A stretch of 32,000 nt of DNA from Patescibacteria group bacterium (GCA_041674405.1 JBAYVT010000005.1:90001-122000), one strand, 5' to 3'; shown: positions 7,001-12,066, counted from the stretch's first letter. Numbers and translations: made by a program. Notes: generated by a model from the sequence alone, not told the origin.

Positions 7001-7681
7001 CTATACAACTCTTTTTAATTTCTTCTTTGCCTGTTCTATTTGAATTATTGCCTTGACGATGTCCTCATACATTTTATATCGGCTTTTTATCCCGGCCCAG
7101 ATATCATCATTCTTTTCTTCCTTAATTACCTGGGTTAAACCGTGCAAAACCACAATCTCACGCCGCTCCTTTGGAACAGCCGCCGTAATCAATGCATCAA
7201 CGCCGAATCTGGAATGTTTAATTTTTGCAAGTGGAGGCAAATTCTTCCGCCAAATCACACGTTGGCCGGAGATTGCAGGAAATGCCCTATTGGCGATTTT
7301 TGTGGTTGTAAGCTTATCAATATTGAATACACCAAGCGAAAGATCAGCCGTTTTCATAAATGCCACCGGTCCCAAAAGCTCCAAAATATGCCCCTCTGTT
7401 AAACCAATCAAGTCGGCATCCAAAAACAACAAAAGCGGATGGTGCGAATGTTTAATGCCATTATATAAAGCCATTCCCTTGCCGCCATTTTGTTTGTTTT
7501 TAAGAAGGCGTACATTTGAATATTTTTTAACAATTTCGCATGTTTTATCCTTTGAGCAATCATCCACAACAATTTTTTCATCAATAAAATCAAGCGGAGC
7601 GACTACGTCGAGAACTTTGCGAATATTTTTTGCTTCGTTGTATGCACAGATAATCAGTGAAATTTTTTGTTCAAATTTCAT
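7001..7681 (-). CDS. Family 2 glycosyltransferase.
   Basis: GT2 motifs: SLIICAYNEAKNI, VDDCSKDKT, and the DxD in LLFLDADL. 226 aa. Confidence 0.8.
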   Translation of the reverse strand: MKFEQKISLIICAYNEAKNIRKVLDVVAPLDFIDEKIVVDDCSKDKTCEIVKKYSNVRLLKNKQNGGKGMALYNGIKHSHHPLLLFLDADLIGLTEGHILELLGPVAFMKTADLSLGVFNIDKLTTTKIANRAFPAISGQRVIWRKNLPPLAKIKHSRFGVDALITAAVPKERREIVVLHGLTQVIKEEKNDDIWAGIKSRYKMYEDIVKAIIQIEQAKKKLKRVV

Positions 7682-7690
7682 CGCAGACTA

Positions 7691-7699
7691 ATTATACCA
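7691..7699 (-). promoter_or_regulatory. Extended -10 element TGGTATAAT, 9 nt upstream of the GT2 ATG.
   Basis: The reverse complement of attatacca is TGGTATAAT. Only tagtctgcg separates it from the ATG at 7681, and no SD is present. Confidence 0.4.
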
Positions 7700-7739
7700 A
7701 ACTATAAAATAAAAATCAGTTTTTGTCGTATAAACGCAG

Positions 7740-7794
7740 CAACTCCCACAGACTGGCTGCGGGAGTTGGAGATCTGCCGTTCCCCGGAGGGAAC
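7740..7794 (-). terminator. Two GC-rich hairpins after the island-1 lipoprotein stop codon.
   Basis: On the minus strand: GTTCCC-TCCG-GGGAAC (7779-7794), directly after the TAA at 7796-7798. Next comes CAACTCCCGCAG-CCAGT-CTGTGGGAGTTG (7740-7768, one mismatch), followed by a weak U-tract. Confidence 0.55.
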
Positions 7795-7795
7795 A

Positions 7796-8317
7796 TTACG
7801 GCGCGTAGCTGGGGGGAGTGAGATGGCCAGCAATGGTCGTCCCGTTGTTCGTAGTGACGATGTCACCCTCCGCGGCGAAGTTGGCGGCGAGGCACGCCGC
7901 CGCGCCGTCTACCGAGATGTGGTTGCCGTCCATGGCGACCACCTCCATCCACCAGGAGCCCTCCTCGTACTGCATCAGAAGATAGGGCTGGGTGCCCTGG
8001 CCCAGGTCCAGACTCCGAAGAGCCAGAGACAGGATCTCCTGGCTAGGCCGGATAGGGACCGACCCGACCTCGACATCGGCAGTGTTGTAGACCTTGATCT
8101 GGCCGTTGCCGGTCCCGTCGCGGGACATGGTCAAGTACGTGATGCCATCGCCGCTGTCGAGGCGAGCGATGTTGCCCAAGCCGTCTGTGGCCCACTTCAC
8201 ACCCGCCGTCGGGAAGGCCGGGTCCACGCTTCCGCCTCCGCCACCACCACAACCAGTCGAGATGAGGATCGCCACCAACATGGCGACCAGTCCGACCAAC
8301 AACATCCATTTGCGCAT
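7796..8317 (-). CDS. GC-rich putative lipoprotein (island 1), function unknown.
   Basis: Start chosen at MRKWMLLVGLVAMLVAILISTGC, 5 nt after the SD AGGTGA. The Cys is followed by a GGGGGGS linker. Most codons end in G/C. The lipobox is imperfect (S at -3). Confidence 0.7.
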   Translation of the reverse strand: MRKWMLLVGLVAMLVAILISTGCGGGGGGSVDPAFPTAGVKWATDGLGNIARLDSGDGITYLTMSRDGTGNGQIKVYNTADVEVGSVPIRPSQEILSLALRSLDLGQGTQPYLLMQYEEGSWWMEVVAMDGNHISVDGAAACLAANFAAEGDIVTTNNGTTIAGHLTPPSYAP

Positions 8318-8378
8318 GTTCATCACCTGTTCCAGGAGTTCGTACACCATGTGGCGGCATACGTATTACAGCGCCATC

Positions 8379-8407
8379 AAACTAGCATATATTCAGCAAT
8401 TTGTCAA
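8379..8407 (-). promoter_or_regulatory. Sigma70-like promoter for the island-1 lipoprotein gene.
   Basis: Minus strand reads TTGACA (8402-8407), a 17-nt spacer, then TAGTTT (8379-8384), set in AT-rich DNA. Confidence 0.45.
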
Positions 8408-8471
8408 TAATAGATAATTATTTTCTGCCGTTATGCTACCGGCCACAAAAAATTCTTCAGCCAAGCCAATC

Positions 8472-8505
8472 AAAAAATTTCCAACCATCTGGCTGGAAAT
8501 TTTTT
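8472..8505. terminator. 12-bp AT-rich hairpin with A- and T-tracts on both sides (bidirectional terminator-like).
   Basis: AAAAAATTTCCA-accatctggc-TGGAAATTTTTT. Confidence 0.4.
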
Positions 8506-8583
8506 GTCAGACTTGCATACCTTTGTATATCCGAAACACAATGGATAAGCATTGTGAAGTTGTTTTTAAAGCTACTTTATCCT

Positions 8584-8620
8584 AATAAAAATAATCAGCT
8601 CTAAACTGATTATTTTTTGC
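8584..8620 (-). terminator. Hairpin terminator downstream of rdgB. Member of a repeated intergenic hairpin family.
   Basis: AATAATCAG-ctctaaa-CTGATTATT, flanked by an A-run and a T-run. About 80% identical to 10316-10350. Confidence 0.55.
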
Positions 8621-8685
8621 AGAAAACATTGGAAGATACTGGAGATTGTCTAGCGGTAAAACATTTTTAACGACAATACGGTACT

Positions 8686-9303
8686 TTAAAGACTAAAGTA
8701 CTTGTCAAGTTCCTTGATCGCTGACCTAAAAGCTTTTCCCCTATGATTTATTTCTATTAAATCATTTGGGTCGAACTCAGCATTTGTTTTTTTATAATTA
8801 GCATTTTTTGATAAAAATATGGGTGCGTATCCAAAACTTTTTGTTCCTTTTGGCTCGAGTGCGATGCGACCATCCCACCTTCCTTCGGTTGTCTTAACAA
8901 ATTTGGTTGAAGGATCATATATAGCAACATTGCAGTTATAATGACAACCCCGCATACTCATCGGAATCTCATTCATCTTTGACAGAACTTTTCTGTTATT
9001 TGCCTCGTCTGTTCCTTCTTCCGAATAACGGGACGAGCATATTCCCGGTTCTCCACCAAGAGCATCAATGCAAATTCCACTATCATCAGCAAGCGTAGTC
9101 ATTTGCAAATTGTCGCCAATTACAATTGCTTTAATTAGCGCATTTCCTTCAAAACTTTCTGCATTTTCCTGAACCTTAAGATCAGCAATCTTGTCTTTAT
9201 AATCATAAAGGAATTTCAAGTCATAATTTGAGTTCTTAAAAATCTCCCGAATTTCCCTTGCCTTACCTTGATTCGCAGTGGCGATTAAAATTGTTTTTTT
9301 CAT
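8686..9303 (-). CDS. rdgB: Non-canonical purine NTP pyrophosphatase (RdgB/HAM1 family ITPase).
   Basis: Ham1 motifs: ILIATANQGKAREI, ENAESFEGNALIKA, DDSGICIDALGGEPGICSSRY, SFGYAPIF. Confidence 0.85.
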   Translation of the reverse strand: MKKTILIATANQGKAREIREIFKNSNYDLKFLYDYKDKIADLKVQENAESFEGNALIKAIVIGDNLQMTTLADDSGICIDALGGEPGICSSRYSEEGTDEANNRKVLSKMNEIPMSMRGCHYNCNVAIYDPSTKFVKTTEGRWDGRIALEPKGTKSFGYAPIFLSKNANYKKTNAEFDPNDLIEINHRGKAFRSAIKELDKYFSL

Positions 9304-9375
9304 AAATTATTATTTAGGATATTGTTGGCTAATATAGTATCAGAAACACAAGTTCAATTCCAGCCATTTTTTAAT

Positions 9376-9462
9376 GACAAAATATCCAATCTGTAGGTGG
9401 ATATCTTTGGCAATGTAAATATGCAAAGTTAGAACTTGTTATAATGCCGCATAATCAAAACG
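9376..9462. repeat. Diverged copy of the terminator hairpin plus the last codons of the P-loop kinase gene (partner at 11016-11100).
   Basis: By-eye alignment gives roughly two thirds identity. Shared blocks include ACAAAA, GTGGATAT, TTTGGC and the 11-nt block TTAGAACTTGT. The hairpin ATATCCA/TGGATAT is at 9382-9404. Confidence 0.5.
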
Positions 9463-9511
9463 GCCGCCCCCGAAGAGGCGACCGTCTGATAATACACCGG
9501 AAACGCTCCGG
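9456..9511 (-). terminator. Strong intrinsic terminator after the island-2 lipoprotein gene.
   Basis: On the minus strand: CCGGA-GCGTT-TCCGG (9497-9511). Then ACGGTCGCCTC-TTCG-GGGGGCGGCCGT (9460-9485), an 11-bp stem including two G-U pairs with a UUCG loop, followed by TTTTG. Confidence 0.7.
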
Positions 9512-9520
9512 CGCGACTCA

Positions 9521-10195
9521 CTAGCGAAGGCTGAGGTAGCCTTGCTTCAGTTGCTCGTGAGAGATGGTGATGGTGGCGTACAGCACCCGGTTCTCGTCGA
9601 TCAGGCTTCCGGGATTCTCGAAGTTCCAGGACGGCAGCCAGAGCAAGTTGTCCACGTAGTACTTGAAGCGAACCACAGGGGGGCCTTGCTCGCTGGTCAG
9701 GACCTTCACCCTCTCCATCGGAAGAGAGCTAACGAAGGTTGGCACATCTCCCCCGCTTTGGTTTTGGGGAAGCGACCAGCAGAAGACATAGCTGACTCCT
9801 GGCCGAGACTTTCCCTCGACGCTGCCCTCGACGTAGCCTCCGAGGAAATTGCCTCCCCCGCTTAGGCTTCCACTGAGGTCAGACTTCTGGCCTTTGCTCA
9901 CCAGCGGGTTGAAGACCAGTGGATGGGGCCCGAGCAGATGGTATCTCTCCAACTGCCCAATGTTCCACTTCACCCATCCAGTATCTCTGGCAGACTTCTC
10001 TCTGGCCCGCTTGATGGCAGAGTCATAGAGTTCGAAGTTACCTATCCGTGGGTTAAAGCTTCGTTCCCAGAAGTAGTCGGGCGTGTCGAGCCTGACTTTC
10101 AGCCAAGACTTGTCCGCGGGAGTCAGCCCCTTGGAGCAGCCTACAACTGACACACCTACCAACAGAACCAACAACACGACAGCGATCTTTCGCAT
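9521..10195 (-). CDS. GC-rich putative lipoprotein (island 2), function unknown.
   Basis: MRKIAVVLLVLLVGVSVVGC has a canonical lipobox V-V-G-C. SD GGAAGGGA is upstream and the stop is TAG. Codons are G/C-biased at the third position. 224 aa. Confidence 0.75.
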   Translation of the reverse strand: MRKIAVVLLVLLVGVSVVGCSKGLTPADKSWLKVRLDTPDYFWERSFNPRIGNFELYDSAIKRAREKSARDTGWVKWNIGQLERYHLLGPHPLVFNPLVSKGQKSDLSGSLSGGGNFLGGYVEGSVEGKSRPGVSYVFCWSLPQNQSGGDVPTFVSSLPMERVKVLTSEQGPPVVRFKYYVDNLLWLPSWNFENPGSLIDENRVLYATITISHEQLKQGYLSLR

Positions 10196-10248
10196 CTTGA
10201 TCGTCCCTTCCTGGATATCGGTCTAGATTTGTGTTTCAGAGCTTAAAC

Positions 10249-10277
10249 ACAATAACACAATATTACAAATATGTCAA
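10249..10277 (-). promoter_or_regulatory. Sigma70-like promoter for the island-2 lipoprotein gene.
   Basis: Minus strand reads TTGACA (10272-10277), a 17-nt spacer, then TATTGT (10249-10254). The sequence around the -35 resembles the island-1 promoter (ATTGACA-A/T-ATT). Confidence 0.45.
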
Positions 10278-10315
10278 TTATTAACTTCATTGAAGTTATA
10301 TAAATATAGAACTCA

Positions 10316-10350
10316 ACAAAAAATAACCAGCACTAAACTGATTATTTATT
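10316..10350 (-). terminator. Hairpin terminator downstream of the Nudix gene (same family as 8584-8620).
   Basis: AATAACCAG-cactaaa-CTGATTATT with flanking A and T runs. Confidence 0.55.
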
Positions 10351-10400
10351 GGCAGGATATAGCAACTGAAATCAGAAACTTTTATTTGAGTGCAAATGTT

Positions 10401-10937
10401 CTATATTAGTTTCTTTTCTTTTAAATATCTTAAACCAACGAGACCCGTTGCCATGTCTGTCAGCTCTCCGGAAAGCAAGTGTTTCTCAAATTCATTTAAA
10501 CTTAGTAATACTACTTCGACAAACTCAGTTTTTTCATTTTCTGGTTCTTTCACTTGTTTGCAATTTAGTGCTATAAAATTATGAAGTTCGGTATCCGAAT
10601 AAGCACACTTATAAGCCTTATTAACAAGGTAAAATTCTCCTGTATAACCAGTTTCTTCCAGTAACTCTCTTTTTATCCCATCAACCGGATATTCATTATT
10701 ATCGATGCCTCCACCAGGTAGCTCAAGCAATATTTTCTCGCACCCAGGTCTAAATTGTCTCGCTAGAATTATTTTTTTATCTTCAGTAATCGCCAGCACT
10801 GCAGCAACAGGGCCCTCTTTCTTTATATGATAATTCTCAACTTCTCCATCAGGCATGCGAAAAGTTTTTTTGATAATTTTTCTAAAACCAACCTTAATCG
10901 GCTCTTCCTCTTTTATTTTTTTCCACCTTATACTCAT
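10401..10937 (-). CDS. NUDIX hydrolase (ADP-ribose pyrophosphatase-like).
   Basis: Nudix box GGGIDNNEYPVDGIKRELLEETGY. 178 aa. Confidence 0.85.
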   Translation of the reverse strand: MSIRWKKIKEEEPIKVGFRKIIKKTFRMPDGEVENYHIKKEGPVAAVLAITEDKKIILARQFRPGCEKILLELPGGGIDNNEYPVDGIKRELLEETGYTGEFYLVNKAYKCAYSDTELHNFIALNCKQVKEPENEKTEFVEVVLLSLNEFEKHLLSGELTDMATGLVGLRYLKEKKLI

Positions 10938-11015
10938 TATTCTTTCTCCTTTTTATCATTTACCAATATCACTCTAGCAAATTCACGCCAATTGTTCTAA
11001 CAATGTATTACCTAT

Positions 11016-11050
11016 ACAAAAATAACCACTCATAGAGTGGATATTTTTTG
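11016..11050 (-). terminator. Hairpin terminator downstream of the P-loop kinase gene.
   Basis: AATAACCACT-catag-AGTGGATATT followed by TTTTTTG, with an A-run upstream. Confidence 0.55.
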
Positions 11051-11084
11051 GCGAAGAACAGCGAAAGAAGTTAGAACTTGTAAA

Positions 11085-11723
11085 TTAGTGCCCCGTGATA
11101 ATAATTGATGGAAATGCTGTTTTAAACAGCTCCAAACGCTCTTTGGATTTTTCGATACTTTCGTCGGCGTACTGCTTAATTTTTTTCGATATCTCATTGC
11201 CCTTAATGCCATTCACTTTATAATCCGATAATTGCACCTCTGTTATATGATCCCAAATTGGGAAACTTACTTTCTTATTGATAACATCATCGGAAAATCG
11301 CTTAGAAATACTCTGATAATAAAATCCCCTGTCAAATGGATGAAAATAAACTAGGCAGATTTCATCGGCATGCTTGCCAAGAATTCGTTGCAAAACCGTA
11401 GGATCGGCAATGGCCGAATCTAAAGCGATGTTTGAAACGGCTAGCATATTATCAATAAACCCTTTGGCTGTAGTTTCAAAAGATTCTTGCCATTCCTTTG
11501 GGGCAATCCCGCCATAAACAGTAAAAGCTTCTTTGTCTTTTGCCCCAAATTTATTCCTCACGCTTTCCCGAACGATCAGATCAAATTCAATATGCTTATA
11601 GTTTAGACTTTCTAGCTCCCTGGCAAATGTTGATTTGCCCGTACAGGTTTTGCCACACAGGACAACTATTTGTGGTTTTTCGCAAATTATTCTTTCTTTC
11701 ACTTGATTTGTAGTCAATTTCAT
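11085..11723 (-). CDS. P-loop NTPase, small-molecule or nucleotide kinase-like.
   Basis: Walker A motif VVLCGKTCTGKST near the N-terminus. 212 aa. No other family-defining motif recognised. Confidence 0.6.
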   Translation of the reverse strand: MKLTTNQVKERIICEKPQIVVLCGKTCTGKSTFARELESLNYKHIEFDLIVRESVRNKFGAKDKEAFTVYGGIAPKEWQESFETTAKGFIDNMLAVSNIALDSAIADPTVLQRILGKHADEICLVYFHPFDRGFYYQSISKRFSDDVINKKVSFPIWDHITEVQLSDYKVNGIKGNEISKKIKQYADESIEKSKERLELFKTAFPSIIITGH

Positions 11724-11787: not shown

Positions 11788-11812
11788 CAAAAAATCACTA
11801 GTCCCAGACTAG
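11788..11812 (-). terminator. Intrinsic terminator closing the tRNA-rpmG-tRNA-Trp transcription unit.
   Basis: Minus strand: CTAGTC-TGG-GACTAG followed by TGATTTTTTG. Confidence 0.65.
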
Positions 11813-11992
11813 CAATCTTTTGGCATGGGCTAGAGGAGGATCTCACGTCGGCTATTCGCCTCCCTGGATACCCTCGGTTTCCGGCTCCTTCCGACATCGG
11901 GAGACCAAATGTTCTCCCGACCCCACTTTGTTCGACTCCTCTAAAAACCAAAAGCCATCCCGCATAGTCAATCTTTGATTGGCGACGTGGGA
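11813..11992 (-). other. Structured spacer built from tRNA-Trp-derived direct and inverted repeats. Possible ncRNA or integration scar.
   Basis: TGGCATGGGCTAGAGGAG (11821-11838) matches the tRNA-Trp 3' end (11993-12010) at 17/18. GTTCGACTCCTCTA (11930-11943) is a perfect inverted copy of 12003-12016. GCCATCCCGC (11954-11963) is inverted relative to 11987-11996 at 9/10. There is an internal 8-bp hairpin TCGGGAGA/TCTCCCGA. Confidence 0.4.
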
Positions 11993-12066
11993 TGGCAGGG
12001 GCTAGAGGAGTCGAACCTCTGACTAGGGTTTTGGAGACCCCTATTATACCGTTTAACTAAGCCCCT
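11993..12066 (-). tRNA. trnW: tRNA-Trp (anticodon CCA), CCA encoded.
   Basis: AGGGGCTTAGTTAAACGGTATAATAGGGGTCTCCAAAACCCTAGTCAGAGGTTCGACTCCTCTAGCCCCTGCCA. The cloverleaf was checked by hand: acceptor AGGGGCT/AGCCCCT, anticodon loop CTCCAAA, T-arm AGAGG-TTCGACT-CCTCT. Confidence 0.9.

Follow-up and report, generated by a model that had tools for sequence, protein, structure and literature searches.

A repeated hairpin module bounds a row of single-gene units behind the tRNA-Trp gene of a Patescibacteria group bacterium

Introduction

Several described systems bring accessory genes into rows or place short palindromes behind them. Tandem islands stack at tRNA 3' ends, integrons and clusters of attC sites lacking integron integrases (CALINs) hold arrays of gene cassettes, and repetitive extragenic palindromes and their mosaic elements (REP/BIME) are mobilised by RAYT proteins. 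The Patescibacteria, or candidate phyla radiation (CPR) bacteria, have tiny genomes with few recognisable mobile elements, and published surveys describe much gene exchange. Here, a row of five single-gene units behind a tRNA-Trp gene of a Patescibacteria group bacterium is described, together with a repeated ∼77-nucleotide (nt) junction module that bounds four of these units. The window is a stretch of 32,000 nt (GCA_041674405.1 JBAYVT010000005.1:90001-122000), corresponding to C5:90001-122000 in a genome of 929 kb, seven contigs (C1 to C7) and 42% GC. Positions without a contig name are counted from the first letter of the window.

In the order of transcription, the row consists of tRNA-Trp, a kinase-like gene, a NUDIX hydrolase gene, the gene for lipoprotein 2 (island 2), rdgB/Ham1 and the gene for lipoprotein 1 (island 1), followed by a GT2 glycosyltransferase gene; every gene from 7001 to 11723 is on the minus strand. 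An initial annotation had singled out the two GC-rich islands, which bracket rdgB, and had suggested that foreign genes were captured by a site-specific or hairpin-targeted mechanism, each immediately downstream of an AT-rich hairpin. The analysis given here favours serial insertion of single genes at a site formed by a tRNA end and a hairpin, a reading that is put at about even probability, and it separates this site from the GC-richness of the two islands.

Results

Four copies of a junction module bound successive units

The two AT hairpins that precede the islands, A (8587-8619) and B (10319-10351), had been described as ∼80% identical; their kinship is upheld and the actual identity is higher, 30/33 positions. 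When 84 generic A-tract/T-tract hairpin terminators with perfect stems were compared in all 3486 pairs, a mean of 15.2/33 and a maximum of 25/33 were obtained. Because the A/B pair exceeds every one of these generic pairs, it is concluded from the sequences that hairpins A and B are true paralogs, related by descent, and the proviso in the initial annotation that they might simply be generic terminators does not hold for this pair.

An alignment of the unit boundaries, as had been proposed, yielded a common junction module of ∼77 nt. Its four copies align over ∼75 nt and lie after the kinase-like gene (module D), NUDIX (B), island 2 (C) and rdgB (A), so named in Table 1. The module starts with a AGTTCTAAC box, present in the form A(A/C)AAGTTCTAACTT, of which AAGTTCTAACTT is T-loop-like and palindromic; ∼20 nt finishing in (C/T)GCCA follow, and then an A-tract, the hairpin and a T-tract. 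An nhmmer profile of the four copies identified just these four in the 929-kb genome (E ≤ 1.5e-12), the next match having an E-value of 0.43, and both a 14-mer common to D and C and a 28-mer occur twice in the genome. The module hairpin fits the generic description of a Rho-independent terminator, with an A-tract, a covarying stem and a T-tract, and the module exceeds a plain terminator by a sequence-conserved 5' part of 45 nt and a conserved loop.

In the row, modules D, B, C and A bound successive single-gene units, and island 1 follows the last module. Their likeness has a period of two, as D resembles C, with which it shares the type of hairpin and an exact 14-mer, and B resembles A, with spacings of 1642 and 1732 nt, respectively. 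The bounded units include the AT-rich NUDIX, rdgB and kinase-like genes, so that a GC-rich island beside a hairpin, as initially proposed, is not the unit of capture. The position immediately downstream of a hairpin applies to island 2 (gap of ∼40 nt) and holds loosely for island 1, of which the -35 element is ∼180 nt away from hairpin A; a weak additional module or hairpin lies between them.

A capture hairpin dispersed throughout the genome was considered and rejected, since searches with the exact motif, the 28-mer (up to three mismatches), the 14-mer and the nhmmer profile all returned only this locus. In place of the dispersed examples that the initial annotation had proposed to look for, there is the local row of four modules. 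A scan of metagenomes for the AT hairpin gave 21 matches, all unrelated.

Modules D and B resemble the 3' end of tRNA-Trp

Downstream of tRNA-Trp a spare copy of its 3' end could be identified: positions 11838-11821 (CTCCTCTAGCCCATGCCA) correspond to the last 18 nt of tRNA-Trp with 17/18 identical. Past this copy, AAAGAT, a CTAGTC/GACTAG hairpin and TTTTTTGTATATGG follow. When modules D and B were aligned to the spare end and its hairpin, D scored 35 over 41 nt and B scored 31 over 49 nt, and 83 generic hairpin terminators, tried in both orientations, scored ≤29. The parts in common are GCCAAAA.AT, the hairpin and TTTTTGTATA; module B in addition has CTATATCC-TGCCA at the place of CTCTAGCCCATGCCA. 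A covariance model made from the four copies (R1) gave a weak match at the spare end (11789-11825, E 0.037). The spare tRNA-Trp end with its hairpin is read here as a putative att-like prototype of the module, and the module, at least in D and B, appears to be a diverged copy of a tRNA 3' end with its trailer hairpin.

Between tRNA-Trp and its spare 3' end lies a GC-rich and apparently structured segment of ∼154 nt (11839-11992). The usual neighborhood of this tRNA gene is rpmG-tRNA-Trp-secE-nusG. In this genome nusG is found at C5:77661-77969, ∼24 kb downstream of tRNA-Trp, and because the cassette row, the genes for GT2 and an 850-aa protein and a type IV pilus locus intervene, this order is interrupted.

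Arrays of the module occur in related genomes

With R1 (full-length matches at E ≤ 0.001), 43 other genomes of the order were searched and modules were found in nine of them, by family in 8/23 (f2), 1/12 (f4) and 0/7 (own family); the other orders of the class, represented by 17 genomes, gave none. The aligned matches retain the box (AGTTCTAAC or AGTTCGAAT), CGCTRT and CCGCCA, and the stems covary (CACTC/GAGTG, CGCTC/GAGCG, TAGTC/GACTA and TATTA/TAATA). In this alignment, which is fitted to the model and contains some reverse-strand reads, 95% of the cells were paired compared to 83% after shuffling, with double changes in 8 of 12 pairs.

The largest array was located in G014 (locus L087, G014:C32:38000-52000), where at least 10 co-oriented modules lie within 12.5 kb, each past one to few genes. 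The array genes comprise orphans with a GC content of 0.50-0.57 (backbone ∼0.35) and genes for a methyltransferase and for flavodoxin-like, YGGT and TPR proteins; three congeneric genomes have module-like pieces in common and share almost no array genes at the DNA level. Also present at this locus are two paired small genes of 113 and 109 aa, which G012 has as well, and, encoded on the other strand, a radical SAM/SPASM gene. The row of G013 starts with tRNA-Asn...GCCA-hairpin and continues with NUDIX, a module, a gene of 292 aa and another module, and its three hairpin stems are near-identical.

Some of these observations also suit a different explanation, in which the module is a selected functional 3' element (a terminator with a protein-binding box, or a small RNA derived from the 3' untranslated region, UTR) behind accessory genes, notably those for nucleotide house-cleaning (NUDIX, Ham1), and the row arose by segmental duplication or unequal recombination. 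As a part of this explanation, unequal recombination would have joined two alternative slot alleles, D-NUDIX-B-island 2 and C-rdgB-A-island 1, in keeping with the period-2 similarity and the like spacings. A NUDIX gene precedes the module in three genomes (this one, G013 and G019), and as a palindrome in DNA the box AAGTT-CT-AACTT is of the type bound by dimeric proteins. Moreover, the hairpin and loop of module D and of the G039 copy are identical in spite of a protein identity of ∼45-50% between the families, which suggests selection on the module sequence itself. On the other hand, the genes between the paralogous modules have unrelated folds (NUDIX versus Ham1) and the two lipoproteins are unrelated, and plain duplication is therefore insufficient. 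The genes in the G014 array are very diverse, and a pure regulatory element does not predict the likeness to a tRNA end or the position next to a tRNA gene. A functional element multiplied by duplication is regarded as an unlikely alternative to serial insertion.

The accessory genes of the row are patchily distributed. The NUDIX gene was found in 1 of 20 relatives' genomes. The closest relative of rdgB, 73% identical at both the DNA and protein level, is in G034, a member of another family, and the likeness ends exactly at the ends of the coding sequence. When rdgB was searched for in seven genomes of the same family, five gave no candidate, G006 gave a marginal match (34% over 68 aa, E 7e-4) and the G005 candidate failed, so that no clear rdgB was found in these genomes. 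On one metagenome contig a Ham1 gene adjoins a PurL gene whose product is 71% identical to PurL of this genome.

No recombinase or attC organization accompanies the row

The genome encodes one tyrosine recombinase (on C4, in the region 79844-80407) and one large serine recombinase (on C7), and neither a Y1 HUH transposase (PF01797) nor a reverse transcriptase was found in it. The search for recombinases proposed in the initial annotation was thus positive for the first two types, both on other contigs, and negative for HUH Y1. None of the five units of the row encodes a recombinase. Five module-bearing relatives have one tyrosine recombinase each, far from the arrays; PF00589 gave one match per genome, on another contig or ∼130 kb off. 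Retro-insertion of transcripts was rejected as a route, as no reverse transcriptase was found.

The observation that integrase and attC consensus are missing stands: no integrase adjoins the row and no attC organization could be seen by eye. A true integron-type cassette array of the CALIN kind, in which the modules would be attC sites for an IntI-type integrase, would account for co-oriented units of 0.7-1 kb that each end in an imperfect palindromic element, and for an element that is homogeneous within a genome while the content varies between congeneric genomes. By eye, the box TTCTAAC also fits the attC R'' consensus RYYYAAC at 6/7 positions. However, alignments judged by eye contain no R' (GTTRRRY) at the far end and no R''/L''-L'/R' layout, the sole Xer-like tyrosine recombinase of each genome is distant from the arrays, and the units have their own predicted promoters. 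An integron is accordingly considered very improbable.

Both islands are predicted lipoprotein transcription units

Two-state GC segmentation placed island 1 at 7735-8358 (63.3% GC) and island 2 at 9461-10214 (57.4% GC), with flanks of ∼35-39% GC; these boundaries agree with the initial ones, and the two islands are real and co-oriented. Four other public assemblies contain the locus at 99.8-100% identity, and a chimera of the assembly is therefore excluded. The coordinates of all features are given in Table 1.

Table 1. Features of the row and its surroundings, in the order of transcription, and copies of a second palindrome family elsewhere in the genome.
Feature	Position	Strand	Basis or remark
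tRNA-Trp (CCA), head of the row	11993..12066	minus	ARAGORN; Rfam tRNA 63 bits
Spare tRNA-Trp 3' end with A-tract, hairpin and T-tract, CTAGTC-TGG-GACTAG	11789..11838	minus	sequence; alignments to D and B
P-loop kinase-like gene, 212 aa, unit one of the row	11085..11723	minus	weak AAA_18/AAA_33 matches
Module D, box ACAAGTTCTAACTT, ...CGCCA, hairpin ATCCAC/GTGGTT	11017..11094	minus	nhmmer E 1.3e-15; R1 82.8 bits
NUDIX hydrolase gene, 178 aa, AT-rich	10401..10937	minus	Pfam PF00293 E 3e-13
Module B, includes the initially annotated hairpin 10322-10346	10318..10395	minus	
Predicted island 2 promoter, TTGACA-17-TATTGT with TG extension	10249..10277	minus	10/12 consensus matches
Island 2 lipoprotein gene, 224 aa, GC 0.57, GC3 0.72	9521..10195	minus	
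Two GC hairpins past island 2	9455..9514	minus	folding and sequence
Module C, exact 14-mer ACAAGTTCTAACTT common to D	9377..9452	minus	
rdgB/Ham1 non-canonical NTP pyrophosphatase gene, 205 aa, AT-rich	8686..9303	minus	Pfam PF01725 E 8e-49; NCBIfam
Module A, includes the initially annotated hairpin 8590-8614	8586..8662	minus	
Weak additional module or hairpin, CCAGCC-AGAT-GGTTGG with A- and T-tracts	8472..8539	minus	R1 with filters off, E 0.033; inverted repeat
Predicted island 1 promoter, TTGACA-17-(TGc)TAGTTT	8379..8407	minus	read by eye
Island 1 lipoprotein gene, 173 aa from ATG at 8317, GC3 0.82	7796..8317	minus	
Two GC hairpins past island 1	7736..7794	minus	folding and sequence
GT2 glycosyltransferase gene, initial backbone gene past the row	7001..7681	minus	
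AAACGTAACAATTCTTCCGCGGTCGCGGAAGAATTGTTACGTTTTT palindromes on C1 and C3	C1:107190, C1:232323, C3:3957, C3:5331, C3:9294, C3:37252, C3:41527		
AAACGTAACAATTCTTCCGCGGTCGCGGAAGAATTGTTACGTTTTT palindromes on C5	C5:29289, C5:105927, C5:139213		

The start of the island 1 gene is most likely the ATG at 8317, which has a Shine-Dalgarno (SD) sequence AGGTGA 5 nt upstream and gives the protein start MRKWMLLVGLVAMLVAILISTGC; the island 2 gene starts at 10195 with MRKIAVVLLVLLVGVSVVGC. Both lipoproteins open with MRK. A lipobox cysteine, read from the sequence without a dedicated predictor, follows MRKWMLLVGLVAMLVAILISTG in island 1 and MRKIAVVLLVLLVGVSVVG in island 2 and is conserved in the relatives of both, and with signal peptide and lipobox cysteine both gene products fit bacterial lipoproteins. 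The predicted island 1 promoter has a perfect -35 element TTGACA (8407-8402), a 17-nt spacer and a weak -10 element TAGTTT (3/6 matches), and was not listed by the promoter scan. The inferred 5' UTRs of the two islands are ∼47-57 nt long. With its UUCG loop and its T-run, the second hairpin past island 2 (9457-9485) is taken to be an intrinsic terminator. The initially described layout of promoter, SD, lipoprotein and two hairpins thus holds for both islands, apart from the weakness of the island 1 -10 element, and both islands are self-contained, co-oriented predicted lipoprotein transcription units. That the two lipoproteins are unrelated to each other was confirmed by BLASTP (E = 2.4).

Neither lipoprotein has a match in Pfam or NCBIfam, and the AlphaFold2 models of the two are too poor for use (pLDDT 45 and 33). 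Relatives of the island 2 protein were identified solely in other CPR-type genomes, namely G014 and G020 (39-44% identity) and one metagenome contig (48%), in which the gene is a stand-alone unit behind greA; the gene was found in 2 of 40 relatives' genomes. The G014 orthologue lies outside the module array and is flanked by a duplicated terminator. For island 1, two metagenome proteins with 56 and 37% identity and the same lipobox were found, and no relative in the species genomes. A half-hairpin after island 1 was considered as a target duplication and rejected, since its 11/16 match in A-rich sequence is non-significant.

The islands belong to a genome-wide class of GC-rich units

Genome-wide, the GC content of open reading frames (ORFs) is bimodal. 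Approximately 46 strong islands (≥400 nt and ≥56.5% GC; range 56-65%) are distributed over all contigs in a backbone of ∼39% GC, mostly one gene long; examples are C1:90076-94082, C3:85336-86606, C3:144792-147162 and C4:131181-133743. Their products include PurL, a PurC-PurE fusion, a PurM-like protein, PurN, an aminotransferase, NAMPT with NadM-Nudix, and several secreted proteins or lipoproteins. Nearly all islands have an AT-rich sigma-70 promoter just outside and are GC-rich from about the predicted start of the transcript, and at the 3' end, 50-65 nt beyond the stop, there is a strong GC hairpin, to which a short T-run is attached. Near-consensus promoters were found for 39% of the island genes, compared to 16% of those backbone genes that have a gap upstream; shuffling gave 6-8%. 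GC contents at the three codon positions are 0.61/0.45/0.73 in islands and 0.48/0.36/0.39 in the backbone. Stop codons differ as well, with TAG 23, TAA 11 and TGA 2 in islands (TAG 23/36) versus TAA 315, TAG 143 and TGA 115 in the backbone (TAG 25%); RF1 and RF2 are both present, and GC-rich genes on related contigs show the TAG bias less strongly. Tight mRNA folding was examined as a cause of the GC-richness and rejected, as the z-scores of islands 1 and 2, only -1.2 and -2.7, the latter including the terminators, give weak support at these two genes.

Since the promoter/SD/terminator layout recurs in ∼44 other islands that lack the module (two of the ∼46 sit in the row), the shared layout is a trait of the class, and it does not indicate a shared insertion mechanism, as had been proposed. 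It is concluded that the two lipoprotein genes belong to a genome-wide class of GC-rich transcription units that circulates or persists among Patescibacteria, and that GC-richness is a trait separate from the module and the insertion site. Whether the islands are "foreign" has become uncertain. GC at third codon positions (GC3) spans 0.43 to 0.72 among the relatives of island 2, which were found solely in CPR-type genomes. Relatives of PurL with 36-53% identity (G031, G007 and two metagenome contigs) lie in blocks of ∼60% GC with flanks of ∼33-46% GC, so that PurL is at ∼60% GC in distant AT-rich genomes, and a search of the species genomes for a donor of the PurL island gave no close relative. 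The GC-rich state is either long-persistent or carried with the genes among these bacteria. The PurL-relative loci are L048 (G031), L049/L050 (G007), and L052 and L054 (metagenome contigs); in the latter two, the block lies at one common site, between a DUF1573 gene and a Bac_transf gene, with different purine genes.

The size of this class bears on the alternative raised in the initial annotation itself, that no special mechanism is needed: genes acquired horizontally and independently would survive in gaps between terminators and promoters, and the hairpins would be ordinary and alike by constraint or by trivial local duplication. Terminators are indeed common, with 84 perfect stems and a terminator-like hairpin within 120 nt of ∼30% of the backbone ORFs, and the many islands with the same layout have no module. 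In a published survey, up to 13% of the genome length in Patescibacteria is ascribed to horizontal transfer, mostly among Patescibacteria (PMC12455944). Direct repeats could be detected around only 3 of 47 island genes. Their excess over backbone genes, of which 3 in 548 have such repeats (Fisher p 0.008, odds ratio 12), is counted in favour of serial insertion; ∼8 non-coding local direct-repeat pairs exist in the genome, of which 4-5 bracket GC-rich units. Against this alternative stand the A/B identity far above every generic pair, the conserved box outside the hairpin in all four copies, the co-oriented arrays of the module in other genomes, and the resemblance of D and B to the tRNA-Trp end above all 83 controls. 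Independent acquisition into ordinary gaps is therefore disfavoured and held to be improbable.

Other repeats were noticed around GC-rich genes. A second family of post-gene palindromes, AAACGTAACAATTCTTCCGCGGTCGCGGAAGAATTGTTACGTTTTT, has 10 copies (Table 1), of which two have a common 45-nt 5' extension. A GC-rich island is no more than 120 nt away from four of the copies, and the PurM-like island C3:4097-5270 is bracketed by two. Two adjoining, unrelated GC-rich genes have the same 50-nt 3' UTR and terminator at 96% identity (C1:76819-76868 and C1:77956-78004). The motif CGACGATCGTTCATATTTCGACGA is intergenic at C1:74507, C1:75189 and C1:75863, ∼0.67 kb apart, and also occurs downstream of C5:132424; a GC-rich gene has one copy in its promoter region, and the motif may be an operator.

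Discussion

The favoured explanation for the row from 7.7 to 11.9 kb, to which an even chance is given, is that single genes were inserted serially behind tRNA-Trp, at a site formed by a tRNA end and a hairpin. Five single-gene units, each with its own promoter, would have been inserted one after another, and each insertion would have regenerated the site, like elements that integrate at tRNA genes. As no recombinase is encoded in these one-gene units, the enzyme would have to act in trans; candidates are the single Xer-like tyrosine recombinase of each genome and RecA, which would use the repeated module. The hairpin of the module may double as a bidirectional intrinsic terminator of each unit. 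Of the initially suggested capture at a site or hairpin, the link to both is retained, as the hairpins are paralogous, the module bounds four units, arrays occur in relatives and the module resembles a tRNA end, and the tie to GC islands and expression signals is given up.

Several observations weigh against serial insertion. Modules C and A align to the spare end with scores of just 16 and 18, the T-loop-like box lies ∼5 nt too far from CCA for a tRNA, and in Rfam the module has no match, with the tRNA model missing it. The E-values of R1 are rough, as the model was calibrated briefly. Island 1 has no module after it, and the period-2 pattern (D like C, B like A) could equally stem from local duplication. 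No recombinase lies beside any array examined, the two of this genome being on other contigs. An empty site or presence-absence polymorphism was not seen, as all four other assemblies of the population carry the row, and the neighborhoods of GT2, NUDIX and rdgB are non-syntenic in the reference genomes, where the relatives are too distant; GT2 orthologues in relatives have different neighbors. Finally, promoters and terminators are predicted throughout, and we infer both transcription and mobility of the units.

More generally, these Patescibacteria may have an integrase-less capture system, in which promoter-bearing single genes are stacked at a tRNA-3'-end/terminator-hairpin site by a trans-acting enzyme. 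This wider proposal is tentative and considered somewhat unlikely. If it is true, co-oriented arrays of up to 10 or more units would turn over between close species, integron-like in function with a different site, and could perhaps serve as a route for the persistent GC-rich class between genomes. With a junction module defined at the boundaries of single-gene units, gene acquisition in CPR/Patescibacteria would become a testable question, as the module can be searched for by covariance model, near tRNA genes and in variable arrays of relatives. In addition, two things are now separated, the insertion site represented by the module and the genome-wide class of GC-rich genes that extend from promoter to terminator.

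Among known systems, the closest are tandem integration at tRNA genes and integron/CALIN arrays; integrase and attC organization were looked for, and the row has neither beside it. As in tandem islands at tRNA 3' ends, the row starts at a tRNA gene with a spare tRNA 3' end downstream, and repeated, putatively att-like copies (box ...GCCA and trailer) part the inserts in one orientation. In contrast to these islands, each insert consists of one gene (0.7-1 kb) and lacks its own integrase, the repeated site would take in the trailer or terminator hairpin of the tRNA and its copies have diverged, and no integrase lies near an array in the genomes examined. With integrons, the sedentary chromosomal ones included, and CALINs the row shares co-oriented single-gene units with imperfect palindromic ends of ∼60-120 nt, many orphans, and elements that are similar within a genome while the gene content varies between close genomes. 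Integron cassettes are mostly promoterless, however, whereas the units of the row are single ORFs with their own predicted promoters and terminators, and the row lacks an adjoining IntI or attC organization and has a repeat that resembles a tRNA end with an intrinsic terminator.

REP/BIME elements are likewise short post-gene palindromes that are clustered and double as terminators or mRNA stabilizers, and tRNA-linked repeats of E. coli carry copies of tRNA 3' ends, as the module may. The module differs from them in having four copies in one row, which bound gene-sized units and are not scattered, in a genome without a RAYT/Y1 HUH gene. The compositional islands described for Patescibacteria (PMC12455944) are also GC-atypical, patchy accessory genes transferred mostly among Patescibacteria; the GC-rich units described here have boundaries that coincide exactly with the predicted transcript start and the terminator, have near-consensus promoters of the host type, and include at least one family (PurL) that stays at ∼60% GC in several AT-rich genomes of distant relatives. 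The rows with different genes in related ultra-small bacteria point to an undescribed stacking of genes behind tRNA genes, with no integrase beside them.

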